From an uncultured bacterium (GTDB lineage Bacteria > AUK180), in NCBI GenBank assembly GCA_937863565.1, contig CALMGJ010000009.1, forward strand, positions 124,001 through 156,656: DNA of 32,656 nt, written 5' to 3'. The translations under genes were made by a program, and so were the position numbers. The notes under the pieces were generated by a model. The model did no database searches. It was given only the letters and a program-made list of their open reading frames with translations, and had not been told where the DNA came from. This document shows, piece after piece, positions 16,976-32,394 of the stretch (the first letter of the stretch is position 1; each line of letters begins with the position of its first letter).

Positions 16976-16991
16976 TGCCCGTAAAATATAA
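16976..16991 (+). repeat. 16-bp direct repeat, copy 1 (tgcccgtaaaatataa)
   Basis: Identical to 18327-18342. Confidence 0.85.
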
Positions 16992-17012
16992 AGACCAGGT
17001 ACCTTTTGAAAG

Positions 17013-17420
17013 TTATTTTTCTGCTACTTGTTTTATTTTGTTAGCAATCAGAAAATACTCTCTTGTCAGGAAAAGGAATAAATAGAAACTCAGGCTTACC
17101 GAAAGGTGGCAAGAAAAATATATTGTCTTCTCGAAAGCGGGGATGCATATAAAAAGGAAAAGGATTATAAGCGCGAGCCCGGAAAGTATCAGGCCGATTA
17201 CTTCTCGTTTTATTAGTATGAAAAAGTGAAAATATACATACGATACCGCCGTTGACGCAAAAACAGAAAGAAGCGGAGATCCGCTGATTACCGGACTTTC
17301 GGTATTTCCGATAAGGATCATTCTGTTTAGGAAAAGGTATAGGAACCCCGCGGCTCCGAGCCAGATTATAAAATTTGTGATTTTCAAGTCCCTGATGTTG
17401 TTTATCCGCTTTTCAAGCAT
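17013..17420 (-). CDS. Four-TM membrane protein (possible immunity partner of the upstream lipoprotein)
   Basis: Four hydrophobic Phe/Leu/Ile-rich segments. Likely start ATG 17420, 11 nt after the lipoprotein stop. The immunity role is inference. Confidence 0.65.
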   Translation of the reverse strand: MLEKRINNIRDLKITNFIIWLGAAGFLYLFLNRMILIGNTESPVISGSPLLSVFASTAVSYVYFHFFILIKREVIGLILSGLALIILFLFICIPAFEKTIYFSCHLSVSLSFYLFLFLTREYFLIANKIKQVAEK

Positions 17421-17431
17421 ATCTATTCTCT

Positions 17432-18181
17432 TTAAAAACAATCTACACAGGCAGACGAATCAAAGCAATTCTGTATTTCTTCTTCTAATGTAGTTCCTGA
17501 TTCTAATGCCTTTTTTTCCACTCCCTTAAAGCATTCATTGCATAAAATACAATCTATCGCCCACCAAGCAGCACGTAATACCAATATTGTACCGATTACG
17601 GCTGCTGCTATAAGAATAATAGGTAAGGCAGCATCGGGTGTTCTGAAAAATGATGTAGCAGAATTCCAATCTGTAAAAATACCTTCAAAATATACATCTC
17701 CATCATGATCTAGCATTTTAAGGGTTAGTATTTTCAGCATTAATATTACTGCGTGATCCATTTGAGACAGGGTTTTGGGAATATCTATCCTCGCCAATCT
17801 TTTCTTTACTGCCTCGCAATTATTCTGATTTGAGACTGTAAATGATAATATAATTGATTCGATTTGCTCTTGAAATTTATTGGCTCTTTCTATGTTTACA
17901 AATTCTATCTCGTTATTCTTAATGCATGCTAAGAGAAAGTTAATAAAATATAACTTAGAAGGAAGTTTATAATAATTTTCATAGTATATGTCTTTATATT
18001 TGTCAAGTTTAATAATAATGGGAATTATTTCACTATCTTCAATTATTTTGGGGGATTTTGCTCCCGAAAGCAGTGCATTCTGAATAGGGTCTGTTGGTAA
18101 GTTAGAAATCTTTGAACACCCGGTAAACGTAACAAGTGCAATACATAGAAGTAACCTGAAAAAATTAAAAGATTTTTTCAT
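17432..18181 (-). CDS. Lipoprotein with hydrophobic and six-cysteine C-terminal domain, unknown function
   Basis: Signal peptide with lipobox (VTFTG-C). C-terminal AALPIILIAAAVIGTILVLRAAWW followed by CILCNEC...CFDSSACVDCF. SD GGAGGGG. Confidence 0.75.
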   Translation of the reverse strand: MKKSFNFFRLLLCIALVTFTGCSKISNLPTDPIQNALLSGAKSPKIIEDSEIIPIIIKLDKYKDIYYENYYKLPSKLYFINFLLACIKNNEIEFVNIERANKFQEQIESIILSFTVSNQNNCEAVKKRLARIDIPKTLSQMDHAVILMLKILTLKMLDHDGDVYFEGIFTDWNSATSFFRTPDAALPIILIAAAVIGTILVLRAAWWAIDCILCNECFKGVEKKALESGTTLEEEIQNCFDSSACVDCF

Positions 18182-18217
18182 AATCCCCTCCTATAATTAT
18201 TTAAAATAGTATATTAT

Positions 18218-18246
18218 ATTTTACTACTTTTATTTTTATTTTGCAA
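18218..18246 (-). promoter_or_regulatory. Sigma70 promoter of the lipoprotein module
   Basis: Minus strand TTGCAA-17 nt-TAAAAT. AT-rich context lowers certainty. Confidence 0.55.
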
Positions 18247-18326
18247 GCTTGATAAGGGATGTATATAATATGGAGCAGTATTTGATAACATTCGCTCGCC
18301 TACCGTCTCCCGGCATTAATTAAGCT

Positions 18327-18342
18327 TGCCCGTAAAATATAA
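18327..18342 (+). repeat. 16-bp direct repeat, copy 2 (tgcccgtaaaatataa)
   Basis: Identical to 16976-16991; lies 7 nt past the UPF0489 stop. Confidence 0.85.
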
Positions 18343-18349
18343 CACTATC

Positions 18350-19444
18350 TTAAGTATTATTTACAATAAACTTGAACAATTTCTTTAGTGCTTCTTCGCA
18401 TGATAAATCATTTGTAGTTTTTTTTAGATTATCATAACAACTACACTCTTTTGTGATTGTTATTGCTACCGCATCTGATATTAAATTTTGCAATATTTTA
18501 CTTTTCTTAGGTTGCAATGTTTCTTTAAAATGGAACACATCAAGATCAAAGTCCAAGATGTACGGGGTTGTCACCCTATTATTTACATATAAGCCCTTAT
18601 TAAAAATGTTTAATCTCTTCAATCTTTCATCCAACATTAATTCCTCAAATTCGTTCTTAAAATTATCTCTCGCATCATCACTCTGGATATAATCTATGTA
18701 ACCAATGTTAAATACATTACAAAGATCCGAAACATTCTCATTCTTATGGTTAAGATGATTAAAACTATAGACCTCTTTAACTATACCCTTTAATGTAGCT
18801 GTATCGAGTTGTTCATCATTAATTAACAGATTTACGATATCCTCAAGACAAGTATTACTAATTTCATTTTTTGCCCATTTACGATCATATGTTTGAAGCT
18901 GTTTTTTATTAGTCCACTCATTAAGCTTACAGGGATGGGTATCGCTATGATGATCGAATGTTATCAGTATTAATTCTCTTTGTTCTTTTCTCTTTATTAT
19001 ATCCCATGGGATAAGTGAATGATGATGATGCTCTGTGATGAATATCTTTTTTTTATGGGGATATATTCCATATAAATTGTTTTTTACTTCGTATCTTATA
19101 TTTTTAAATATAGTTTGGGCTAATTTACTCTGTTTTGATGATATCCCGGGACTATGATAGTGTTTAAAATATATTCTGCCAATATTGTTTTCTAAATAGC
19201 ACAGAATATCTGAACTAAGTAATTCCTTGAGTGTATTATTATCTAATTCTACTATTTCCTTTTGCAATTTATCCGAAGGCACATATACCCAGTTCCCATC
19301 ATATCCGTATATTTTACAACCTTGAATATTATCTATGTGGTTGTGTTTGTAATACTCAATAAAACTGGTTCTCTCAATCTGCTGCGTGTTCACACTAAAA
19401 ATAAGCTTCATAAATAATCCTTTACTGTTCCTGCAACAATCCAT
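18350..19444 (-). CDS. UPF0489-family protein (arginase/deacetylase-like metallohydrolase) with an N-terminal extension
   Basis: IFITEHHHHSLIPW, LITFDHHSDTH, LINDEQL, YILDFDLDVF and AITITKE..C motifs. Alternative start at ATG 19411 (SD AAAGGA). Confidence 0.8.
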   Translation of the reverse strand: MDCCRNSKGLFMKLIFSVNTQQIERTSFIEYYKHNHIDNIQGCKIYGYDGNWVYVPSDKLQKEIVELDNNTLKELLSSDILCYLENNIGRIYFKHYHSPGISSKQSKLAQTIFKNIRYEVKNNLYGIYPHKKKIFITEHHHHSLIPWDIIKRKEQRELILITFDHHSDTHPCKLNEWTNKKQLQTYDRKWAKNEISNTCLEDIVNLLINDEQLDTATLKGIVKEVYSFNHLNHKNENVSDLCNVFNIGYIDYIQSDDARDNFKNEFEELMLDERLKRLNIFNKGLYVNNRVTTPYILDFDLDVFHFKETLQPKKSKILQNLISDAVAITITKECSCYDNLKKTTNDLSCEEALKKLFKFIVNNT

Positions 19445-19492
19445 TTAATAACATCCTTGTTTATTGTTAAAGATGGGGCAATACATTTTTTA

Positions 19493-22400
19493 TCATTTAG
19501 GATTATATTTTTCATAAATACCTCTTAATAATTCTTCATATCCACGTTTGCCATAAGTTTGACATATTTCATTTGCATTTTTCCAAGCGTCTAAATCTTT
19601 ATTGTTGGAATACTGAATGTAGATGAATTCAACTAATTCTTTAATATGCTCTTCTTTGTAAGTGGGTGTGAATTCTGAAAGCATTTCCAGGAATATCTCA
19701 CTTATATACTTAGCCGTTATTTGATCTTGATTCCTTTTATAAATATCATACAGACTATTAATAATATTTGAAAAACTATATTTGTAGTGACTATATTTAG
19801 CAGATAGTTTTATCCAATCTATATTGTTTTCATCTAACCTCTCTACAAAAGCGATCATATTACCCAGCACAGAAAGAATTTCTTTATTCCCCTTATCTAA
19901 TTTTCCTTTCTCTATTAATTCTTTACATTTTTCATATAGCAGTTCCCATATCTTATATATTTTGTGCACTTCGTATTTCTTATATTTCTCATCTTTTAAA
20001 TAGAAATATTGTTTTAGACTCAATAAATAGTACAAAGTATCCATAATTAAATTCGAGTTGTTTCCTAATAATAATTTTCCATAGAGACCATCTTTTAAAT
20101 CTTCATATTCCCATATGTAAAAATGTAACAATTGTTTGCCTATTATTGTTTGGACATCTTTTTCAAGAACATCTATCTTATTAATAGCATTATTATAATG
20201 GTTCTTCATTATCTCGAATGATTCTTTCGTTATTGCCATACGAACGGCAAAACCCTCCATAAAAAATTTCCATCCCGGTTCATCTTTGAATTGTTCGATC
20301 ACAGGTTTCCCTTTTGTGATATATCCTTTATCGTAAAACAATATATTTGTGAGATTATAGCCTAAAAGAATATATCCTCTAATATCCTTCTTTTCAAGTA
20401 ATCTGTTCAATCGTTCATATATTTTCTCTTTATATTGTGTAAGATCTTCGTTTGGCGATAATGGCTCCTTGCTCTCCTTCATTAAATGGAATAGTAATGT
20501 TATACCTACATTCATTGTTGATATTACAATATCTCCCCATAGCAACGTTAATATTCCCATCCTCGCATTCCCATCTTCTGTGTTAAGGCTTTTCCTTTCT
20601 TCAAATACTTTATTAAGTGAACAAGTTACTAATTGTATTAATTGATTTGAATAGTTTTGATAAATTCGTGGGTAGTAATTTATGGCTTTAAGTAAAAAAT
20701 CATTAATAGAGATATTAACTTCGGTATGCTTCATGCTTCCCCATTCATTTACAGAGCTATATTCATCACTCCAAAATTTTGGATCTACGAATAATTCATT
20801 AAGATATTCTATAATTGTTTTAAAATCTAACTGCTCCTTGTTATTGGAACCTAATATTTCGTGTAATGCAGTATAAATAGTGTTAATATGATAATAGGGA
20901 ATCATTTTAAATGTTTTAAGATTAGACGAATATTTATATGGATCCGCTTGAATCGCTTTAATAAACTCTCGTTCAAAATCAGAATTCCTTAATTCGCTCT
21001 CATTGATTAATTTATCTTTTAAAGTAGATAACGACATTTTATTTATCTGTTCTTCAGTATATTTAGGACTATCTCCAATCATAGGATTGCCAATAATTCT
21101 TACTGCCGGAGCCAATTCCGTTTCCTTTGTTATTTTTTCTTCGAATTTATCAGACCAGCGGAGCGCATTATAATATCTTTGCCTTATTTCTTCAGCATAA
21201 CCGTCCGGGTTATCATAGGCATGATGATGTATTGGAATATTGGAAATAATATCATCTAATTTCTTTAATATTTCTTGGGTTTCAGGGGTATCTTTGTAAT
21301 TTCCCATTTTATCTAATATATTGCGTATTTCATCGTGGAGTTCTATCGAGTCAAATATATTGTAATATCTACTTTCCAGAATATTCATGAATTCCTTATA
21401 AAACACCTCATATTTCTCCCCTATGATGTAAAGGGCTATTTTAGGATAAAACAAGTAGGCATTACGCATATTAATTTTAATATAATTCTTTAAATCTTCT
21501 TCGTATTGATCTTTAGAAATCATTTCCTTAATTAGTATTAAGATAATATCGGTTATTATAGTTTCCGGAATGGTGGTATATCTATGCTCTTCTCTGAAAC
21601 TATATCTGGTGCCCCGATTGAATAAACTCTTAATATTATAAAACAACTTGGACTTGTCCTTGTCTGTTGTAAAATATTTGTTAATGTTTCCATCTGAAAA
21701 TAGTGTGTTGTATATAATCTTATCATTGCCTAATAGAAATGATATTATTACTCCATCTATTGATATTTGAATTTCATTATTCACTTTAGATATGTTTACT
21801 ATTTTATCTTTAATCTCCAGTAATAGTGCTTCTTCATTCTTTTCAATGACCAATTTGATATTATCCAACAATATTTTTAATGCATTCATTCCACATTTTT
21901 CTATTATTAAACACGCATGTTTTTTAAATCCTTCCATTAACCAATATTCATCTAATATTAAATATTGCGATATTTGAAAGCTCCACTCATCCGGATTTTT
22001 TGGAGGGGTATAATTGGGATTATCCTTGATTTCTGTAATATTCTTGATTAGAATCAACGCTTTCTTTGGATCCTCCTTTAACAATCTGGGAAGCAAGTGC
22101 TCCATGATCTCAGATGACAGTAAATGCTTATCCCATTTTTCATTAAACCATGTAGGAATCAGATTAATGAAGTTTTCATTGACATATTCGATCGGAATAT
22201 TAACCATGATTTTAATGAAATACCAGAATATTTGATTATTATATTTATTGGGGTTTTTCCCTATATGACTTGTCGCTTTAAACATTATGCCACATAAATC
22301 ATTTATTGTATCTTCATCTTTTGTATTTGCTGATATAAACTCTAAAAATATTAAGGGTTCCCAAAAGGGAACGACTGTTCGTTTCTCATCCGTATCTGAT

Positions 22401-23050
22401 ACTTCCTGAAGTTCCGGTATTGTGTTAACGTCAAAATAACTTATATTCTTTAAGAGAGGATACCAATCTATATTTATTAATTTTAATTTCTTGATAAAAT
22501 ATGATCTAAAGTAATCTCGGGATATTAATTGTAGTATTTGATTGACATCTTGTATTGCAGGCTCTTTTTTATTTAGTACATCATCGATATACTGTACCCC
22601 CATGAAAAAATCATCTTGCATCATTTTAATATTTCGATCCCTGTCTTTATCTCTAAATGGTTCAATTATTTTTTTCATTGCTTTATCTGAAATCTGTTCA
22701 TCAATTTCTACTCCCCATATATCTTGTAAAAATAGGGGCGCCTCACTTGGTTTTATCCCTAAATATATCGGTAATATTTTAATAGATTTTTTATTTAATT
22801 GCAGCATTAGTGTTGCGTTTAATTCCCTTTTTACCCATTCACTGGCTAGGGAATTCCTTGATAAAATGATCATAAAGTACTGACTGGAATTAATACCGTC
22901 TGTTATTTTATCTATTATACTATCTCCAAGCTTCATTTCCGATTTGTCTATCCATATTTTAATCTTATTCTCTTTCAACCTTTTTTCTAATTCTTCAACA
23001 GTACTGCTGTCTATGTGAGAATAAGAAATGAATACTTTGTTATTTATCAT
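19493..23050 (-). CDS. TIR-domain protein with a ~1000-aa, probably all-helical C-terminal region
   Basis: VFISYSHID, IWID..EM..GDSI, ILSRNSLASEWVKREL (catalytic-position Glu retained) and ILPI. No Walker A motif seen downstream. Likely start ATG 23050 (SD GAAGG), overlapping the SIR2 stop by 11 nt. Confidence 0.88.
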   Translation of the reverse strand: MINNKVFISYSHIDSSTVEELEKRLKENKIKIWIDKSEMKLGDSIIDKITDGINSSQYFMIILSRNSLASEWVKRELNATLMLQLNKKSIKILPIYLGIKPSEAPLFLQDIWGVEIDEQISDKAMKKIIEPFRDKDRDRNIKMMQDDFFMGVQYIDDVLNKKEPAIQDVNQILQLISRDYFRSYFIKKLKLINIDWYPLLKNISYFDVNTIPELQEVSDTDEKRTVVPFWEPLIFLEFISANTKDEDTINDLCGIMFKATSHIGKNPNKYNNQIFWYFIKIMVNIPIEYVNENFINLIPTWFNEKWDKHLLSSEIMEHLLPRLLKEDPKKALILIKNITEIKDNPNYTPPKNPDEWSFQISQYLILDEYWLMEGFKKHACLIIEKCGMNALKILLDNIKLVIEKNEEALLLEIKDKIVNISKVNNEIQISIDGVIISFLLGNDKIIYNTLFSDGNINKYFTTDKDKSKLFYNIKSLFNRGTRYSFREEHRYTTIPETIITDIILILIKEMISKDQYEEDLKNYIKINMRNAYLFYPKIALYIIGEKYEVFYKEFMNILESRYYNIFDSIELHDEIRNILDKMGNYKDTPETQEILKKLDDIISNIPIHHHAYDNPDGYAEEIRQRYYNALRWSDKFEEKITKETELAPAVRIIGNPMIGDSPKYTEEQINKMSLSTLKDKLINESELRNSDFEREFIKAIQADPYKYSSNLKTFKMIPYYHINTIYTALHEILGSNNKEQLDFKTIIEYLNELFVDPKFWSDEYSSVNEWGSMKHTEVNISINDFLLKAINYYPRIYQNYSNQLIQLVTCSLNKVFEERKSLNTEDGNARMGILTLLWGDIVISTMNVGITLLFHLMKESKEPLSPNEDLTQYKEKIYERLNRLLEKKDIRGYILLGYNLTNILFYDKGYITKGKPVIEQFKDEPGWKFFMEGFAVRMAITKESFEIMKNHYNNAINKIDVLEKDVQTIIGKQLLHFYIWEYEDLKDGLYGKLLLGNNSNLIMDTLYYLLSLKQYFYLKDEKYKKYEVHKIYKIWELLYEKCKELIEKGKLDKGNKEILSVLGNMIAFVERLDENNIDWIKLSAKYSHYKYSFSNIINSLYDIYKRNQDQITAKYISEIFLEMLSEFTPTYKEEHIKELVEFIYIQYSNNKDLDAWKNANEICQTYGKRGYEELLRGIYEKYNPK

Positions 23051-23978
23051 TTGAACCTTCTTCAATAGGTGGCATTTGTGTGCATTGATCTACTAATGAT
23101 TTAAAATTATCAATCAATACATTCCATCCTTTTTCCTCAATTTTATATTTTAGAAAACGAATATTATAATAATCACTTAGAATCTTCTCCTCGTATTCTA
23201 TTATATGAATGTTTCCTTCATAAACAGGTTTAAACGCATAATGAATTTTTGAAGATTTTCCCAATCTTGCTATAGAATCTAATATTTGATATTCTTCTAG
23301 ACCGTAACCAACAAATACAACAGTTTTACTCTGAAATATTTCTCTTAAAAATATATTTATAGGGCTTTCCGGATCCAAATATTTTTCTAAGTAATCTCTT
23401 TGCCTTACTATCCAGTATTTTGATTCCTTTTCAATATTACCATGCAGGTAATACAATCTTGTAGCGGGATTGACTTTAAAATATTCGGGTTTATATTCGA
23501 TTTTACTAGATTCTAATTTACATATGTCCTCAATGGAAGTATCGAGATTCGTTGTTAACAATTTGAATTTAGGAATGTTTCCAATAGTATGGCTGTGTAA
23601 TTTTGTTATAAATCCTATTCTTTTTTTATATTCAGGTTCTGTATTAATAGATAAGTGAACTTTTATGGCTTCTTCAAATAATTCTGTATTAATTGATGAT
23701 AAGTAATCCAATATATACGCATATTTGGAACTGTTTTTAAAATTTTCGATACTACTTAGTGTTAATTTATTTTGATCTTCTTCTTTTATTTGATCTTTAT
23801 GGTTCCAAAAATAATCTACTATTTTATCAACTAATACTCTCCATGAAGGATATCCATATAGCCGACTAAATCCGGCTCCAATAAAAAAGTATGCCCCTTC
23901 TTCTTTTAGTTTATTTAGTAAATTATTATATTTATCATTAAAAACTATGACCTCAGGAATATCTGTTAATTTTTCCAT
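23040..23978 (-). CDS. Stand-alone SIR2-like (SIR2_2) NADase-family protein
   Basis: FFIGAGFS..GYPSW, LLTTNLD, YLHG (catalytic-position His), IV...DY...Y and VVFVGYG motifs. Ends right after the SIR2 domain. SD GGAG. Confidence 0.92.
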   Translation of the reverse strand: MEKLTDIPEVIVFNDKYNNLLNKLKEEGAYFFIGAGFSRLYGYPSWRVLVDKIVDYFWNHKDQIKEEDQNKLTLSSIENFKNSSKYAYILDYLSSINTELFEEAIKVHLSINTEPEYKKRIGFITKLHSHTIGNIPKFKLLTTNLDTSIEDICKLESSKIEYKPEYFKVNPATRLYYLHGNIEKESKYWIVRQRDYLEKYLDPESPINIFLREIFQSKTVVFVGYGLEEYQILDSIARLGKSSKIHYAFKPVYEGNIHIIEYEEKILSDYYNIRFLKYKIEEKGWNVLIDNFKSLVDQCTQMPPIEEGSNDK

Positions 23979-24076
23979 CCGTAATTCTCCACAATCTTAA
24001 TTTCTTCTTCTGTCAGATCATAGAGCTTATAGATCAGATTATCAATCTCCGGGTTAATGTATTTAAATTGCTTCAT
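23966..24076 (-). pseudogene. C-terminal relic of a type IIG (Eco57I/TaqI-like) restriction-modification gene
   Basis: Manual translation gives MKQFKYINPEIDNLIYKLYDLTEEEIKIVENYGWKN*. EIDxLxYxLYxLTxEEIxIVE is the characteristic C-terminus of these enzymes. Overlaps the SIR2 start. Confidence 0.78.
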
Positions 24077-24165
24077 TTTTTTTATATGGGTCTATCTTGA
24101 TTTCAAAGGATTCATTGAGTTTCCGGAGTTCCCCCGCTCCTTTCTGACCTTGCTCCATTAATTGT

Positions 24166-24193
24166 ATTTTACCACTTTCCAAATATTTTTCAA
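24166..24193 (-). promoter_or_regulatory. Candidate sigma70 promoter driving the SIR2-TIR-UPF0489 genes
   Basis: Minus strand TTGAAA-16 nt-TAAAAT with a TG extension. Confidence 0.4.
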
Positions 24194-24256
24194 TATCAGG
24201 GGGAAGACCGGGGGGCACGGTAGACCGGATTTTTGCATTTGCGGAAGGGCCCGCTC

Positions 24257-24284
24257 TTGACAAATTCCGTATAAAAAGTAAAAT
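24257..24284 (+). promoter_or_regulatory. Sigma70 promoter, probably leaderless, for pgi/pmi
   Basis: TTGACA-16 nt-TAAAAT. The ATG at 24290 is 5 nt after the -10. Confidence 0.65.
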
Positions 24285-24289
24285 GTGGT

Positions 24290-25255
24290 ATGAATATCAA
24301 CTTCGTCGATAAAAAGAACCTTTTCCGATTCCTTGATGCGGCTCCGTCCCATATCGCAGAGATACTGAAAAAGCCGGCGCCGAAGTTCAGGGGCCCGAAG
24401 GCGGATTCCGTCTGCGTCTTCGGGATGGGCGGCTCGGCGATATCAGGGCTTATCCTTCAGGACATTCTCGGTTATTATTCCCAAACGGGCATATCGGTAA
24501 ATAACAGAGAGCGTATTCACTTAAGAAAGGATACCCTTTACATACCGGTTTCTTACTCCGGCACTACAAGAGAAACGCTCAACACGCTGAATTCCGTCAG
24601 GAAGGGCATTGTTGCGGGAATATCCTCAAAGAAGGATTTCACGCCGGAAACATTCACGGTGCCCGGAGGACTTCCGCCGAGATTCGCTTTCTTCTATATC
24701 TTTTCCGCGCTTATCCGCGTCGTTTCCGAACACTTCGACATCAAGGGCATGAGCGGCGATCTCGAGGAGGCCGTACCCCGGCTGAAAACCTTCAAGGAGA
24801 ATCTCAAAAAAAACGATTCCCAGGCGCATCTCATCGCCGATTCTCTCGGCGGAAAACCGGTTCTCATCTACGCGCCTTCCTGTCTCCGGCACACGGCTTA
24901 CAGGTGGAAAACCCAGTTCAACGAGAATTCGAAAACGCACGCCTTCTCCAATTTTTTCCCCGAACTGACGCATAATGAGATCGTTCCCTATATAAACGGG
25001 GAGGACTTGTTCTCGGTGATCGTTTTAAGAAGCAAATTCGAGACGGACGCGGAAAAATTGCAGATGGACTTCTTCTCCGAACGGGCCGATTTCAATATCG
25101 ATATAACGGCGGGGAACATTCTTCAGGAAGTGCTTAAATATGTTCTTCTGGGAGACTTCATTTCTTATTATCTTGCCGTACGCAAAGGCATCGACCCCTA
25201 TCCCATCGAAATGATCGACTCTCTGAAAAGGCGTCTATCCGAAAATGGACATTAG
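24290..25255 (+). CDS. Bifunctional phosphoglucose/phosphomannose isomerase
   Basis: GMGGSAISG, SYSGTTRET, PPRFA, RWKTQFNENSK, PELTHNEI and GDFISYYLA..G.DP motifs. Confidence 0.93.
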   Translation: MNINFVDKKNLFRFLDAAPSHIAEILKKPAPKFRGPKADSVCVFGMGGSAISGLILQDILGYYSQTGISVNNRERIHLRKDTLYIPVSYSGTTRETLNTLNSVRKGIVAGISSKKDFTPETFTVPGGLPPRFAFFYIFSALIRVVSEHFDIKGMSGDLEEAVPRLKTFKENLKKNDSQAHLIADSLGGKPVLIYAPSCLRHTAYRWKTQFNENSKTHAFSNFFPELTHNEIVPYINGEDLFSVIVLRSKFETDAEKLQMDFFSERADFNIDITAGNILQEVLKYVLLGDFISYYLAVRKGIDPYPIEMIDSLKRRLSENGH

Positions 25256-27669: not shown

Positions 27670-30600
27670 ATGAAACTAAAATTCTTTGCGGTAATTTTAC
27701 TTTTTTTTATCGCTTTTACGTCTTTTTGTATTCCGAATTGGACCGTTGCGGTATATCTCGACGCGGATAATAATCTCGAATCGGCGGGTTTGGACGATTT
27801 TCTTGAGATGTCCTCGATCGGCTCCGACGCGAATATCAATATTGTAGTTCAGCTCGACCTTTACTCCACTTCCAATTCATACGGATGGGCAACATGCAAG
27901 AGATTCTATGTTACTCAGGGAATGACCCCTACTGCGGCAAATGCCCTTTCGGACCTCGGGGAAGTGAACATGGGCGATCCGGACACGCTTATAGCCTTCG
28001 GGAGCTGGGTAAAAACGAATTATCCCGCCGAACATTATCTACTCGTTCTGTGGGATCACGGGGACGGTTGGCGCGCTTTGCCCTCGGATACGCTTACAAA
28101 AGGCGCCTGCACGGACGATCACGGAACGGCAGATCCCGATGACAGCATAGATCCATTTTATCTTAATTTCTCTCATGGCGGGCCGAGCGGCGAAGGGGAA
28201 CTGCAGTATGCATTTTCGCAGATCACCGCAGGAAGCAATTGGGATATAATCGGCTTTGATGTCTGCTTAGACCAGATGTGGGAGAACAATGTGGCCTGCG
28301 CGCCCTATTTCGATTATTTCGTCGGGTCGGAAATGAGCGAGTGGGGCGAGGGCTGGACATACGATCATTTTCTCAATGCTTTGAAATCAGCAGGCGGAAC
28401 GCTCACTCCGGTGGCGCTTGCCAATGCAGTTGTTGCGGCTTATGCATACGGTGAAGGCGGATCAACGGGTGATACTCAATCTTCGATAGATCTCGCTCTC
28501 ATACCCGCGCTGAACACTGCGGTGAATACGCTGGCAAAAGAGCTCATGTGCGCTTATTCTTCGTATTCAACCGTTATCAATGCAGCAAGAACGGCAGCGT
28601 ACGAGCTTGATGGTTCTTACTACTACGATCAGATAGACCTCTACGATCTTTGTCTTGAGCTTGAATCGCAGGCGCTTCCCGGGTCCGTGATCTCGGCGGC
28701 GGCGGGGGTCAGAGCGGCCGTATCGGACGCGGTTAAAAGTAATTTCGCCAAATCGGGCATTGACTGTTACGGGGTGGGGATATACTATCCCAGACCTTCA
28801 TCTTCATACGATACCGATTACAACGGCACTTCCATATGCGGCATTTCATTCTGGGATAATCACCTCAAGCACGAGGGCTGTCCTGTGCCTGTTCTTCTTT
28901 CATATACGGGAAACACCGTTGACGATTCCTCCGGCGGGAACGGAAATGGGAGAGCGGAGGCCGGCGAAAGCGTGAATCTGAATATTTCCGTTTCCAATAC
29001 GGGCACGGATAAGGCAACAGGCATTTCAGCTACGCTTTCCTCCTCCGATCCCTATATAACGGTCACATCGGGTTATTCCGCCTATCCCGATATCGGGTCG
29101 CAGCTGGCCGAAGAGAATACCGAACCTTTTTCCTTCAGCGTGGCAAGCTCATGCCCTCAGGGTCATCAGGCGGTCTTCTCTTTCTCATGTACGGGCAATG
29201 AGGATTCTTTTACCGATACGTTCAGCATAACGATCGGAGTTCCCGTTGTGCTTCTCGTTGATGACGATGCGGGTAAGGCCTGGCATACTTATCTTGAAAG
29301 CGCGATAGCGGCCGCGGGATACTCCTGCGAGATCTGGGATGTAAGCGTAAGCGGCGACCCGTCGCTTTCCGATCTGCAGCTGCACCGTTGCGTGGTGTGG
29401 ACCAATGGAATGGATTCCTCTACTACGCTCACGACTGCGGAGGAGGCTCTTCTTGCATCCTATCTTGACGGAGGCGGAAGACTGTACCTCTCTTCTCAGG
29501 ACTACCTGTACGATCAGGGGGCGTCATCCACGTTCGATTCCCAGTATCTTCATGTGGCATCTTATACAAGCGACAGATCGCCTACCGGAGAAACGGGGAT
29601 TGCGGACGATCTCATAACGGATGGTATGGACATCACTCTCTCGTTTCCCTCGGGATTCACAAATTACGGTGACGATATCTCTCCGGACGCCGTTGCCGTT
29701 GCCATCTTTAAAAACCGCAATACCGGTAATCCTTCATCTTTGAGATATGAGGGCGACTACCGCCTCGTTTTCACGTCTTTTGCTTTTGAGGCGATCCCCG
29801 GTTCCGGCACCGCTCCCAATAATGCGGCGAGCGTGATGGGAAATATCATCGCTTTCCTTTTGGGCGGCTCCGGGCCCGCGCCGCGCTATTTTTCAAAGAC
29901 GATCGGCGACAGCGCTTACGGGAACGCAAGCGGAACCGCGGATGCGGGCGAGACGGTTGACCTTTATATTACGCTTAAGAACATCGGCTCCGAGTCCGTG
30001 ACAAATCCCATAGCGTACTTTACCACGGCATCAACATACACGAATATCATATCTTCATCTTCCTCCTATCCCGACCTGCTGCCTTCCGGAACTGAACAGA
30101 ATCAAACGCCTTTTGTATTGGATTTCTATGCGGGGTTGCCTCTGGATTATAAGATAGATTATACACTCACCCTCGTTTCCGATCAGGATACATGGGTATT
30201 CCCCGTCTCGGTAACCGTGAACTCCGGAACCGGAATGGATACTTTCTGCGCGGGCTTTCCCTCAACAGATGTTCCGGTGGCGATACCGGACAGCACGCCT
30301 TCGGGTGTGACAAGCACGCTGACCATAAGCGACCATGCCGAAATAGCGGACCTCAATTGTTTCGTTGATATCACCCATACTTATATCGGAGATCTCATCG
30401 TGGAACTGAAATCCCCCTCCGGAACAAAGGTGCGCCTTCACAATAGGACGCTCGGGGGCCTTGACAATATCTATACCGTTTACGGTTCTTCAACTACTCC
30501 CGACGGGCCGGGTTCGATGGCTGATTTCATAGGAGAGGACGCGTACGGCACATGGAAACTTTTCATGAGCGACAATGCGGGAAGCGATGCAGGCATATTG

Positions 30601-32394
30601 AACGCCTGGACCGTGGAAGTATGTTCCAATGTGACAGAAATAGAGCTTGATAATACCGGGAACGGCGAATGTATTTTCTATCCTGACTGGTCGTGGACGA
30701 ATACTCCGAGGAGGATCGCCTACATATATACGGGAACGGACAAGGTCTCCAATATCCTTGTGACCGATGCCGAGGGTGAGAGCGTGCCATATGCCGTCAC
30801 GAACGTTTTCGACGGAGTGTCCCATATCTCCCAGATATCCTGGTCCCCGGACGATGAATACATCATCTTCGGTTCAAATGCCGGAGGCAAACTCCATATC
30901 CGCCGCGTGAAAGCGGACGGGACGCAGAAAGGGGCAAGCGAAGTTTTTCAGCCGACGGGAACGCTCCCCGATCCGTATCTTAAATGGGTCGATCCCCATT
31001 GGGCTTCCGCATACGGACAGGAAGGAGAACTGGAAAGGATCGCCGTCAGCATCTCTGGCGATATCTGGGTATATGCCCCAGATGACGGTGTGAACCCGAA
31101 CAGCGGGCTTATCAGGATAACTGATCTCTCTTCCCAGGATCTCGATCAGACTGCCGCGGATAAGCTCTATCAGCCGAGATGGAACAGGGACGGAACGCGT
31201 ATCGTTTTCGTGAGACGCCCCGCTTGCGCAGACAATGCCTCCGCAGATACCGATATATGGGAGGGGCTGGATGTCCAGGACATAATAGCCGGAACGGCAT
31301 ACCCGCTCGGAGACCCTGACGGCGACGGCACGGGCGGCAACTGGAGCGATCCGCGATTGAGCAGGATCGGCAATTCAACATATCCGGAATATTCGCCGTC
31401 CTATTCAATAAACGGGTTGAAAATAGGGTATGTGAACGACAAATCGGGTTCATTCAACAATGTCGCGTTCTGGACCGATCCGGCGGCCGCGCTTTCCGGA
31501 TCGGATTTCGACGCTTTCTGCCAGGGCGCAGCGATAGCCGGATATAATGAATCCTCAAATGAAGGCTTCATGAAGTGGTCGACTGGAGGGGGAGACAGAT
31601 TCACATATGTGAACGCTTCTGGTTCGGCTTATTCGCTTAATGTTGTTTATGACGAAGCGATAGGCGGGTTCATGAAGGGGGGATGCGAGATATCCGGAGA
31701 ATACCTGGTCATCCGCGATAATGCCCTTTCAGTGCTCGAGGTACCTCTTTCAACAGCTTGCGTGTACCCCTATTTCACGCTTAGATCCGCAGGGCATATC
31801 GGCTATGATCGGACGAAGTATATATCTTTGGGAGAAATAAGAAGGATCGGGGCGGGAGATCTGTCCGGAGAAGAGGATTTCTTTGAACCGGCAAGACTGT
31901 CGATTTACTATAATCAGCAGGAACTGATGGGAATGTCTGAAGTATCGCTCATTATGATGCGGTATTCAGGGGGGATATGGACCGCCCTTTCCTCCATTCA
32001 CGAGCCGGACGGGGACGGCATCGGAGGGAACGACCATCTTGACGGAGGTTTTGTGAGCGCCGAAATACCGGGACCGGGCACATACGGGATCTTCCGTGTT
32101 CGGGAGATCGACGACAGTCCTTGCGGTGCAGGCGATTTCATAATGGGGCCGAATCCCTCGCACGGCGATATAACGATCTTTGCCGAAGAAGCTGACATGA
32201 TAGAGATATACACGATATCCGGAGATCTTGCCGCAACACTTTCATCTTCCGCGATCAAGCGGGTCGGCGGGGCAAGATATGTGTGGCGGATCGTGAACGA
32301 CAGCGGCCGCAAGGTCGGGGCCGGCATTTATATCGTTAGCGTGAGATTCACGGACGGAACAAGGAAAAATAAAAAGATCGCTATCGTTAAATAG
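27670..32394 (+). CDS. Secreted multidomain clostripain-family (C11) cysteine peptidase with Ig-like repeats, proprotein-convertase P domain, PD40/TolB-like propeller and FlgD/T9SS-like C-terminal domain
   Basis: WTVAVYLDADNNLE, EVNMGDP, LWDHGDGW (His) and IIGFDVCL (Cys). Two GN..G.A.AGE.V.L...N.G repeats. IPD..ITHTYIGDL..SPSGT..GTWKL..D..D.G.LN.W (P domain). ISWSPD/PRWNRDG/PSYS. GPNP..IYTISG..W..NDSGRKV..GIYIV. Confidence 0.88.
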   Translation: MKLKFFAVILLFFIAFTSFCIPNWTVAVYLDADNNLESAGLDDFLEMSSIGSDANINIVVQLDLYSTSNSYGWATCKRFYVTQGMTPTAANALSDLGEVNMGDPDTLIAFGSWVKTNYPAEHYLLVLWDHGDGWRALPSDTLTKGACTDDHGTADPDDSIDPFYLNFSHGGPSGEGELQYAFSQITAGSNWDIIGFDVCLDQMWENNVACAPYFDYFVGSEMSEWGEGWTYDHFLNALKSAGGTLTPVALANAVVAAYAYGEGGSTGDTQSSIDLALIPALNTAVNTLAKELMCAYSSYSTVINAARTAAYELDGSYYYDQIDLYDLCLELESQALPGSVISAAAGVRAAVSDAVKSNFAKSGIDCYGVGIYYPRPSSSYDTDYNGTSICGISFWDNHLKHEGCPVPVLLSYTGNTVDDSSGGNGNGRAEAGESVNLNISVSNTGTDKATGISATLSSSDPYITVTSGYSAYPDIGSQLAEENTEPFSFSVASSCPQGHQAVFSFSCTGNEDSFTDTFSITIGVPVVLLVDDDAGKAWHTYLESAIAAAGYSCEIWDVSVSGDPSLSDLQLHRCVVWTNGMDSSTTLTTAEEALLASYLDGGGRLYLSSQDYLYDQGASSTFDSQYLHVASYTSDRSPTGETGIADDLITDGMDITLSFPSGFTNYGDDISPDAVAVAIFKNRNTGNPSSLRYEGDYRLVFTSFAFEAIPGSGTAPNNAASVMGNIIAFLLGGSGPAPRYFSKTIGDSAYGNASGTADAGETVDLYITLKNIGSESVTNPIAYFTTASTYTNIISSSSSYPDLLPSGTEQNQTPFVLDFYAGLPLDYKIDYTLTLVSDQDTWVFPVSVTVNSGTGMDTFCAGFPSTDVPVAIPDSTPSGVTSTLTISDHAEIADLNCFVDITHTYIGDLIVELKSPSGTKVRLHNRTLGGLDNIYTVYGSSTTPDGPGSMADFIGEDAYGTWKLFMSDNAGSDAGILNAWTVEVCSNVTEIELDNTGNGECIFYPDWSWTNTPRRIAYIYTGTDKVSNILVTDAEGESVPYAVTNVFDGVSHISQISWSPDDEYIIFGSNAGGKLHIRRVKADGTQKGASEVFQPTGTLPDPYLKWVDPHWASAYGQEGELERIAVSISGDIWVYAPDDGVNPNSGLIRITDLSSQDLDQTAADKLYQPRWNRDGTRIVFVRRPACADNASADTDIWEGLDVQDIIAGTAYPLGDPDGDGTGGNWSDPRLSRIGNSTYPEYSPSYSINGLKIGYVNDKSGSFNNVAFWTDPAAALSGSDFDAFCQGAAIAGYNESSNEGFMKWSTGGGDRFTYVNASGSAYSLNVVYDEAIGGFMKGGCEISGEYLVIRDNALSVLEVPLSTACVYPYFTLRSAGHIGYDRTKYISLGEIRRIGAGDLSGEEDFFEPARLSIYYNQQELMGMSEVSLIMMRYSGGIWTALSSIHEPDGDGIGGNDHLDGGFVSAEIPGPGTYGIFRVREIDDSPCGAGDFIMGPNPSHGDITIFAEEADMIEIYTISGDLAATLSSSAIKRVGGARYVWRIVNDSGRKVGAGIYIVSVRFTDGTRKNKKIAIVK

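Follow-up and report, generated by a model that had tools for sequence, protein, structure and literature searches.

The window analysed here, a 32,656-nucleotide stretch of DNA from an uncultured bacterium, contains an AT-rich island in which the ORF list places three co-oriented genes on the minus strand, together with two smaller genes on the same strand. The genes, and the domains recognised in the largest of them, are as follows, with P0002 residues numbered from the TTG at 23065.

23040-23978, minus strand: P0001, a predicted stand-alone SIR2 NADase subunit of 312 aa (Pfam SIR2_2, PADLOC Dsr1)
19493-23065, minus strand: P0002, the TIR-sensor protein, 1190 aa from the TTG or 1185 aa from an ATG at 23050
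22661-23050, minus strand: TIR domain at the N-terminus of the sensor, residues ~6-135
21770-22609, minus strand: middle (MID) region of a DSR1-type sensor, residues ~152-432, located by six-frame hmmsearch
19493-21577, minus strand: C-terminal alpha-solenoid sensor domain, residues ~496-1190, the range closing at the stop codon
18350-19444, minus strand: P0003, a putative UPF0489/arginase-fold metal hydrolase of 364 aa (Pfam PF12640) with an extra N-terminal region of ~130 aa
17432-18181, minus strand: lipoprotein-like protein of 249 aa with a Cys-rich C-terminus, from its translation
17013-17441, minus strand: membrane protein of 142 aa, from its translation

The GC content is 0.275-0.305 across 18001-24000 and 0.349 across 17001-18000, against 0.41-0.53 in the 7 kb on each side of the island. 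The ORFs and this profile agree with the original prediction, which had described three co-oriented genes in an AT-rich island, and so does the 11-nt overlap of the SIR2 stop with the TIR-sensor start when the ATG at 23050 is used, the start of the 1185-aa form found as database protein P0006. The third gene, expected within 50-80 nt, follows the TIR-sensor gene after 48 nt, or after 81 nt if M12 is the first residue, which is how the 353-aa database entry P0016 begins. Neither Pfam nor NCBIfam places the 249-aa and 142-aa proteins (17013-18181) in a family; the sole PADLOC match of the former is weak (PD-Lambda-2_C, E 0.0035), and the PADLOC search with the latter gave no match. Short ORF fragments are present at the right edge of the island, two of them at 23966-24296, in which Pfam finds nothing. 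In the family relatives used for an empty-site comparison, the left and right flanks of the island sit on different contigs.

The whole of P0001 is a SIR2 domain (Pfam SIR2_2, 3.9e-17), and neither Pfam nor PADLOC detects a SLOG, a Macro, or any other domain for ligand binding in its 312 residues. It matches the PADLOC Dsr1 model PDLC04166 at 1.8e-27 over profile positions 20-275 of 1227 (18-275 in the six-frame search), and by its sequence P0001 corresponds to the N-terminal domain of a DSR1-type protein, here encoded separately. The motifs GAG (34-36), TTN (142-144), and HG (179-180) are present, and residues G34, A35, G36, N144, H179, and G180 are invariant in an alignment of 30 SIR2 partners. 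The TIR domain of P0002 is recognised by Pfam TIR_2 at residues 11-124 (3.1e-24) and adopts a beta-alpha fold at residues 10-121 of the AF2 model; the closest solved relatives in a PDB sequence search are the bacterial TIR NADases 7uxr, Cat1, and AbTIR. Within its WVKRE motif (residues 77-81), neither W77 nor E81 (E76 when counted from the ATG) varies among 23 sequences, and the Glu is retained in both TIR clades, and judged by these residues the domain is catalytically intact. The motifs of both enzymes, which had been read as intact from the letters alone, could be located and are conserved among relatives. The TIR domain occupies exactly the point at which the Dsr1 model is split between SIR2 and sensor.

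The rest of P0002 falls on the same model. In the six-frame hmmsearch the MID region matches PADLOC Dsr1 positions 290-563 (E 5.1e-25) and the C-terminal sensor positions 561-1225 (E 5.5e-31), and residues 496-1188 match PDLC04166 at 1.1e-54 (profile 560-1225). Together, the SIR2 gene and P0002 residues ~152-1188 span the model collinearly, covering 18-275, 290-563, and 561-1225 of its 1227 positions. By tblastn, the TIR-less part of P0002 aligns with three Bacillus plasmid genes annotated as "SIR2 family protein" at 99% coverage and 23% identity. The AF2 model of P0002 (pLDDT 88.6) is all-helical from approximately residue 500. Among its 50 listed matches, a Foldseek search of the PDB with this model gave generic alpha-solenoids alone and no specific assignment: Avs4 ranked first (8dgf, E 3.2e-6, TMq 0.35), with importins, CAND1, and FANCI next. 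No solved protein related to the MID or to the C-terminal part of the sensor came up in a PDB sequence search. Pfam, PADLOC, and NCBIfam detect no NTPase family in P0002, which lacks the central STAND NTPase of Avs/STAND proteins, and the absence of an NTPase, Argonaute, HerA, or cyclase that had been noted from the sequence holds for all three proteins in Pfam and PADLOC.

The sensor of the window is the most divergent branch of the sensor tree. Its PADLOC Dsr1 score of 1e-54 is far below the 1e-130 to 1e-252 of its relatives, which include the TIR-sensor of L001 (2.8e-150), the fused protein of L085 (2.1e-252), the split sensor of L089 (4.4e-130; its SIR2 scores 2.6e-74), and the "SIR2 family protein" of a Bacillus mycoides plasmid (6.5e-159). 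With the NCBIfam Dsr1 equivalog NF041818, whose cut-off is 1400 bits, P0001 reaches 27.2 bits and P0002 has no match; among four relatives the equivalog yields a weak sensor match in L089 only (E 6.8e-8), far below the cut-off.

Two of the features that define DSR1 are found at the locus, namely a SIR2 domain with the catalytic Asn and His (PADLOC Dsr1, N144 and H179) and homology to the MID and C-terminal helical sensor (PADLOC Dsr1 and the Bacillus tblastn matches). The third, a single polypeptide carrying SIR2 and sensor, is not, and the same split occurs in 49 plus 7 of 81 related loci. We consider it likely that the locus is a DSR1-family system of two genes, in which SIR2 is separate, TIR is carried on the sensor, and both effectors are triggered by a phage protein. 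Very probably it is an anti-phage, NAD+-targeting system in which the long helical region is the sensor. The NAD+-targeting defence, the helical sensor, and the SIR2-TIR pairing of the original prediction are retained, but its claim that the system is undescribed and matches no known layout has to be given up in view of the collinear coverage of the Dsr1 model by the SIR2 and the giant protein.

The PDLC04166 subtype of DSR1 is represented by the single-chain "SIR2 family protein" of Bacillus plasmids, with which the window shares a collinear SIR2, MID, and solenoid. It differs from Bacillus DSR1 in having SIR2 on a gene of its own and TIR joined to the sensor at the point where SIR2 was formerly linked, and in being very divergent at that 23% identity, with a model E-value of 1e-54 versus 1e-159. 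DSR1 of B. subtilis is described as depleting NAD+ upon infection (bioRxiv 10.1101/2021.12.14.472415), and by analogy NAD+ depletion would be the expected output here. Phage-triggered NAD+ depletion and protection are also described for E. coli Dsr1, and the Dsr1/Avs7 sensor is described as recognising the phage major capsid protein and carrying varied effectors (PMC13581612, PMC12803255). The window resembles Dsr1/Avs7 in its large helical sensor with interchangeable N-terminal effectors, the NTPase being reported as dispensable for Dsr1 (PMC13581612), but the sequence link is a distant one, NF041818 having no match on P0002. A capsid-protein trigger would be carried over a long homology distance, because this equivalog misses P0002 and is weak on L089. 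"Split proteins" among Dsr1/Avs7 are noted in the methods of that paper, the available text of which mentions no SIR2 plus TIR double effector (PMC13581612), and literature searches, as judged by titles and abstracts, found no work on a SIR2 gene with a TIR-sensor. In DSR2, too, a SIR2 NADase is controlled by an extended helical sensor through its binding of a phage structural protein, reported to be the tail tube protein; however, the PADLOC Dsr2 model matches neither P0001 nor P0002, and DSR2 chains are absent among the best 50 Foldseek matches of the P0002 model.

Related loci (n = 81) were assigned to architectures from the search and then corrected by Pfam. TIR-derived patterns had earlier retrieved 79 loci related through the TIR only and a single full-length relative (L001), and the search was redone with a TIR-less alignment. 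The commonest form, in 49 of the 81 loci, is a stand-alone SIR2 directly upstream of an effector-less sensor, whereas the fused SIR2-sensor of classical DSR1 is found in 6. A SIR2 gene with a TIR-sensor, as in the window, occurs in 7 loci (8 counting the window), and a TIR-sensor without SIR2 in another 8. The others are sensors with an unknown N-terminus of ~180 aa (5 of 81), 5'-truncated sensors (4 of 81), and naked sensors with less than 410 nt of upstream sequence (2 of 81). These counts overstate the number of independent events because several of the loci nearly repeat one another: five sensors have an identical counterpart in the set, and L114, L119, and L133 are close kin. The median gap between SIR2 and sensor is -1 nt (55 pairs).

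In the SIR2 tree, the seven SIR2 partners of TIR-sensors form one clade together with L145 (support 0.885), whereas in the sensor tree the sensors of SIR2+TIR loci are scattered and paired with other architectures at support 1.0. Both are FastTree trees, midpoint-rooted without an outgroup, in which support is low (0.49 and 0.53) for two of the sister pairs. The sensors of L121 and L122 are 98% identical over 899 aa and have unrelated N-termini. Because the SIR2 partners group together and their sensors do not, the phylogenies point to SIR2+TIR as a mobile effector cassette that would move as a unit between sensors.

The original prediction counted the UPF0489 gene as part of a new three-gene system, acting as a signal modifier or third effector with the SIR2 and TIR proteins, and this now appears improbable. 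P0003 covers the full PF12640 profile (1-167, 6e-6), but the family call is marginal, because 27.2 bits barely exceeds the cut-off of 27. Its structural match to a UPF0489 cluster in the ESM-Atlas has a TM of 0.85 by target and 0.54 by query; the single-sequence AF2 model (mean pLDDT 36.1) was not used, and a PDB sequence search found no solved relative. The metal-binding-type motifs H140-H141, D164-H-H-x-D168, and D298-x-D-L-D302 are intact, are invariant in comparison with two relatives, and agree with the HH, DHHxD, and DxDLD motif types quoted for BipC. Because the gene lies 48 nt downstream on the same strand at the same low GC as both DSR genes, it may be cotranscribed with them and have a local functional link; a consensus scan, which is weak evidence, gave no terminator-like site between the genes. 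Conserved synteny nevertheless speaks against the three-gene unit. UPF0489 is absent from all 81 related loci and from the 8 genomes compared in the same phylum, which holds only 9 genomes, and no PADLOC model matches P0003. A downstream ORF is present in five of the seven SIR2+TIR loci, and in four of these five it is an unrelated gene (PCMT, a queuosine synthesis gene, GmrSD, and an unknown 153-aa ORF); the downstream ORF of L119 encodes 135 aa on the opposite strand, and L122 and L160 have no downstream ORF inside the contig. One characterised UPF0489 member is described as a peptide arginase in antibiotic biosynthesis (PMC12707348). By this comparison of loci, the conserved system does not include the UPF0489 gene, which is cargo of the island or, at the most, an accessory specific to this locus.

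The pairing of TIR and SIR2 proteins side by side, both NAD+-targeting, recalls Thoeris, and a relay of that kind can be envisaged in which a phage-triggered TIR makes a cyclic-ADPR-type messenger that diffuses and activates the separate SIR2. Such a relay would suit the location of the two enzymes on separate polypeptides, the coinheritance of a specific SIR2 clade with TIR-bearing sensors, and the invariant TIR Glu. We nevertheless give it little credence. ThsA is a SIR2-SLOG protein and ThsB a small TIR protein, whereas the window SIR2 lacks SLOG and Macro domains and the window TIR forms the N-terminal ~130 residues of a protein of 1,190 aa, fused to a sensor of ~1,050 aa; the PADLOC ThsA and ThsB matches are confined to the catalytic domains that the systems share, which for ThsA means the SIR2 part. 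Direct protein-to-protein control is more plausible, because homologous SIR2 genes are found beside TIR-less sensors (49 loci) or fused to the sensor (6 loci). Activation of SIR2 in trans would fit a split enzyme, and a diffusible TIR signal is not required for it.

TIR domains often work through self-association, and the TIR might be a non-catalytic scaffold that oligomerises the sensor, leaving SIR2 as the sole NADase, as SIR2 alone is enough in the split and fused relatives. This is quite improbable given the retention of the catalytic Glu in every TIR sequence compared and the existence of TIR-sensors without SIR2. In six of those eight loci (L095, L100, L115, L127, L130, and L162), at least roughly 0.9 kb of upstream sequence is available, and because it contains no SIR2 ORF, the TIR must be the effector there. 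That the island is horizontally acquired cargo without current function, as its strongly deviant GC, long-branch sensor, and ORF fragments at the right edge might suggest, is extremely unlikely, since the ORFs are intact over 312, 1190, and 364 codons, the catalytic motifs are preserved, and the sensor is modelled with confidence.

In the two-gene DSR1 reading that we prefer, the MID and alpha-solenoid sensor of ~1,050 aa would have gained a TIR domain at the position where single-chain DSR1 carries SIR2. SIR2 and the TIR-sensor would assemble, possibly aided by translational coupling through the 11-nt overlap; a complex prediction of P0002 residues 1-520 with SIR2, made without controls, scored 0.00 in both runs and speaks neither for nor against such binding. 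The solenoid would bind a conserved phage protein late in infection, and the resulting change in the sensor would switch on both SIR2 and TIR, which would then degrade NAD+ and stop phage replication. A more elaborate and rather unlikely possibility is that the SIR2 and TIR clades are a coevolving, non-duplicating pair of NAD+ effectors that hops between sensors, with SIR2 gated by TIR assembly or by a TIR product, or with end products that phage NAD+-rebuilding pathways could not recycle; the UPF0489 protein may then be an add-on.

What appeared to be a new three-gene system is thus re-filed as a DSR1-family system. A split SIR2 gene and sensor gene is the commonest form of this DSR1 subtype in the metagenome sample (49 of 81 loci), and tools that look for a single long protein may under-call it. 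The placement of one sensor over two NAD+-cleaving enzymes, SIR2 in trans and TIR in cis, appears from sequence comparison to be a recurrent form. The SIR2+TIR loci offer a compact natural system in which to ask why two NADases share one sensor, and one possible reason is resistance to phage counter-measures against NAD+ depletion.

The original prediction held that the SIR2 and giant TIR genes of the window fit no known defence layout. Instead, the two proteins cover, in order, the PADLOC model of the defence-associated sirtuin Dsr1 (PDLC04166). The genes lie in a low-GC island of about 7 kb (GC 0.275-0.305 across 18001-24000 and 0.349 across 17001-18000, with 0.41-0.53 across 7 kb to each side) containing five minus-strand ORFs:

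23040-23978, minus strand: SIR2, 312 aa
19493-23065, minus strand: giant protein, 1,190 aa (database entry P0006 starts at the ATG at 23050 and has 1,185 aa)
18350-19444, minus strand: third gene (UPF0489), 364 aa
17013-18181, minus strand: two small, overlapping membrane/lipoprotein-like ORFs

The 11-nt overlap of the SIR2 and TIR genes and the 48-81 nt to the third gene are as originally described. Neither of the two small proteins matched a family; the larger (249 aa) has a signal resembling those of lipoproteins and a C-terminus rich in Cys, and the smaller (142 aa) is a multi-pass membrane protein. The island is flanked by housekeeping genes, with adenosine kinase, asparaginase, OGG and uridine kinase to one side and, to the other, phosphoglucose isomerase and a metallo-beta-lactamase-fold protein; there are no tRNA genes in the window and no integrase among the flanking ORFs scanned. 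Between the SIR2 and phosphoglucose isomerase genes (23966-24296, minus strand) are two short stop-bounded ORF fragments of 41 and 77 aa, without a Pfam match, which may be the leftover of an older defence gene at the site; a fragment tail, ...LYDLTEEEIKIVE..., may resemble restriction-modification methyltransferase C-termini. A 25-38-nt sequence at the island's left border (16977-17014) has copies, 87-100% identical, in one relative and on at least five further contigs of this genome; a short intergenic repeat is its probable nature. The protein of 1,574 aa with clostripain (Peptidase_C11) and proprotein-convertase P domains (27670-32394, plus strand) is unrelated to the SIR2/TIR finding.

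Pfam identifies SIR2_2 in the window SIR2 (3.9e-17) and TIR_2 in residues 11-124 of the giant (3.1e-24). The SIR2 corresponds to positions 20-275 of PDLC04166 (E 1.8e-27) and residues 496-1188 of the giant to positions 560-1225 (E 1.1e-54); a six-frame genome search with the same model added residues ~152-432, corresponding to positions 290-563 (E 5.1e-25). From these separate matches, the two genes span positions 18-1225 in order, and the TIR domain sits exactly at the break between the SIR2 part and the sensor part. Single-chain "SIR2 family protein" genes of three Bacillus plasmids align to 99% of the TIR-less part of the giant, and one of them matches PDLC04166 at 6.5e-159. The NCBIfam Dsr1 equivalog, which scores 27 bits against the window SIR2, does not match the giant and gives a weak collinear match (E 6.8e-8) to the sensor of the related locus L089, is a different, distant subtype. 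The AF2 model of the giant (88-sequence alignment, pLDDT 88.6, pTM 0.77) begins with a TIR fold and continues as an alpha-solenoid with a few small beta elements; Foldseek returned only generic solenoids for it, with Avs4 at the top.

The SIR2 plus TIR-sensor arrangement recurs. We compared 81 related loci, comprising L001 from a Nitrospirota MAG (the one full-length genome locus) and 80 metagenome loci retrieved with a TIR-less sensor alignment; layouts came from ORF calling and local HMMs, two assignments being corrected by Pfam (SIR2_2 in the ORF upstream of L104, TIR_2 at the N-terminus of L162), and the counts include five sensors that exactly duplicate another locus. A separate SIR2 immediately 5' of a sensor without N-terminal effector was found in 49, and such a sensor with <410 nt of upstream sequence in two; SIR2 was fused to the sensor in six. 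The window layout occurs in seven (L001, L086, L114, L119, L122, L133 and L160), and eight have a TIR-sensor without a SIR2 ORF, an absence that is meaningful only for L095, L100, L115, L127, L130 and L162, since L087 and L158 have <500 nt of upstream sequence. The remainder have another N-terminus of ~180 aa (five) or are 5'-truncated (four). The gap between SIR2 and sensor genes has a median of -1 nt (interquartile -4 to +2, range -140 to +13; 55 pairs). The ~180-aa conserved domain (L096:1285-1884, L099:2452-3051, L101:2144-2743, L121:113-700, L152:207-806), with CxxCG and "FHKYAHRHG.W"-like motifs and only a sub-threshold Pfam match in L099 (HEPN_RES_NTD1, E 0.0088), may be a new effector domain.

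An exhaustive phmmer search with the giant gave 88 representatives at E <= 1e-30. Among the best 150 relatives, a ranking biased by the TIR in the query, local HMMs made from sequences of this analysis sorted 78 as sensors without N-terminal effector, 23 as TIR-fused, 10 as SIR2-fused, seven as PIN-fused and seven with another N-terminus; 15 are fragments and 10 match the TIR only. Pfam places a PIN_12 nuclease domain in place of SIR2/TIR on both PIN-fused proteins scanned (P0072 and P0131), the other five being assigned by local HMM.

In a FastTree of 54 SIR2 sequences, the seven partners of TIR-sensors and L145 form one clade (support 0.885). In the FastTree of 66 sensors, those with TIR and SIR2 are dispersed among other architectures: L122 groups with L121 and L096, L160 with L152, and L114, L119 and L133 with the split locus L135, each with support 1.0. 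These relationships, and the pair L121 and L122 below, fit exchange of a SIR2 plus TIR effector cassette between sensors; both trees are midpoint-rooted without outgroup, and we claim no direction of change. The sensors L121:113-3415 and L122:1087-4386 are 98% identical over 899 residues with unrelated N-terminal domains, a ~170-aa domain in L121 and TIR with an upstream SIR2 in L122, as if the effector had been exchanged very recently.

The predicted synteny recurs for SIR2 and TIR-sensor and is not supported for UPF0489, whose HMM matched the window only and none of the 81 loci; the family is also absent from the eight other genomes of this small phylum, and no PADLOC model matched the protein. 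Downstream of the pair lie PCMT on the opposite strand (L001), a queuosine synthesis gene (L086), a 153-aa ORF (L133), a 135-aa ORF on the opposite strand (L119) and, in L122 and L160, no ORF within the contig; in L114 an immediately adjoining GmrSD-type restriction gene (L114:4660-5403, Pfam) indicates a defence-island setting of that metagenome contig. The Pfam match of the third protein is marginal, at 27.2 bits where the cut-off is 27, and its only two relatives from a word-based search share 24-25% identity with it. It is a credible arginase-fold enzyme, given the motifs invariant in all three (H140-H141, D164-H-H-x-D168, D298-x-D-L-D302), which are of the types that PMC12707348 gives for BipC, a UPF0489 peptide arginase, and the match in the ESM Atlas between its stored model and a UPF0489 cluster (by target, TM 0.85). 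We conclude that the UPF0489 gene is not a conserved component of the system, possibly a local accessory at this locus, and a three-gene mechanism is the less likely reading.

The catalytic-type motifs originally described as intact are conserved in relatives: the GAG, TTN and HG positions are near-universal among 63 SIR2 sequences, G34, A35, G36, N144, H179 and G180 are invariant in a 30-sequence alignment, and all of 23 TIR-sensor proteins share TIR W77 and E81. An inactive relic is less likely. Two TIR clades, both retaining the Glu, can be distinguished; one goes with SIR2 and the other stands alone, so that in the latter the TIR must be the effector. That the TIR serves as a scaffold only is likewise less likely.

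DSR1 depletes NAD+ in infection (bioRxiv 10.1101/2021.12.14.472415). PMC12803255 and PMC13581612 describe a sensor common to E. coli Dsr1 and Avs7, whose trigger is the phage major capsid protein, in a family bearing NADases, nucleases and kinases, and treat "split proteins" in the methods. By analogy, the window sensor would bind a conserved phage protein and switch on the SIR2 subunit bound to it as well as the TIR domain it carries, both of which would degrade NAD+; the identity of the trigger is a long-range extrapolation. A diffusible signal of the Thoeris kind is less likely than activation of a bound SIR2.

The Dsr1 sensor family and its effector modularity are already known, and there is at least some acknowledgement of the split form in print. 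Phrase searches, and a three-term literature search judged by title and abstract, found no account of Dsr1-type sensors with a TIR that recur together with a separately encoded SIR2. In PMC13581612, "TIR" occurs twice in the main text, at least once in the reference list, and the supplementary tables or figures may already list the layout. Within this known family, that combination is what would be new.
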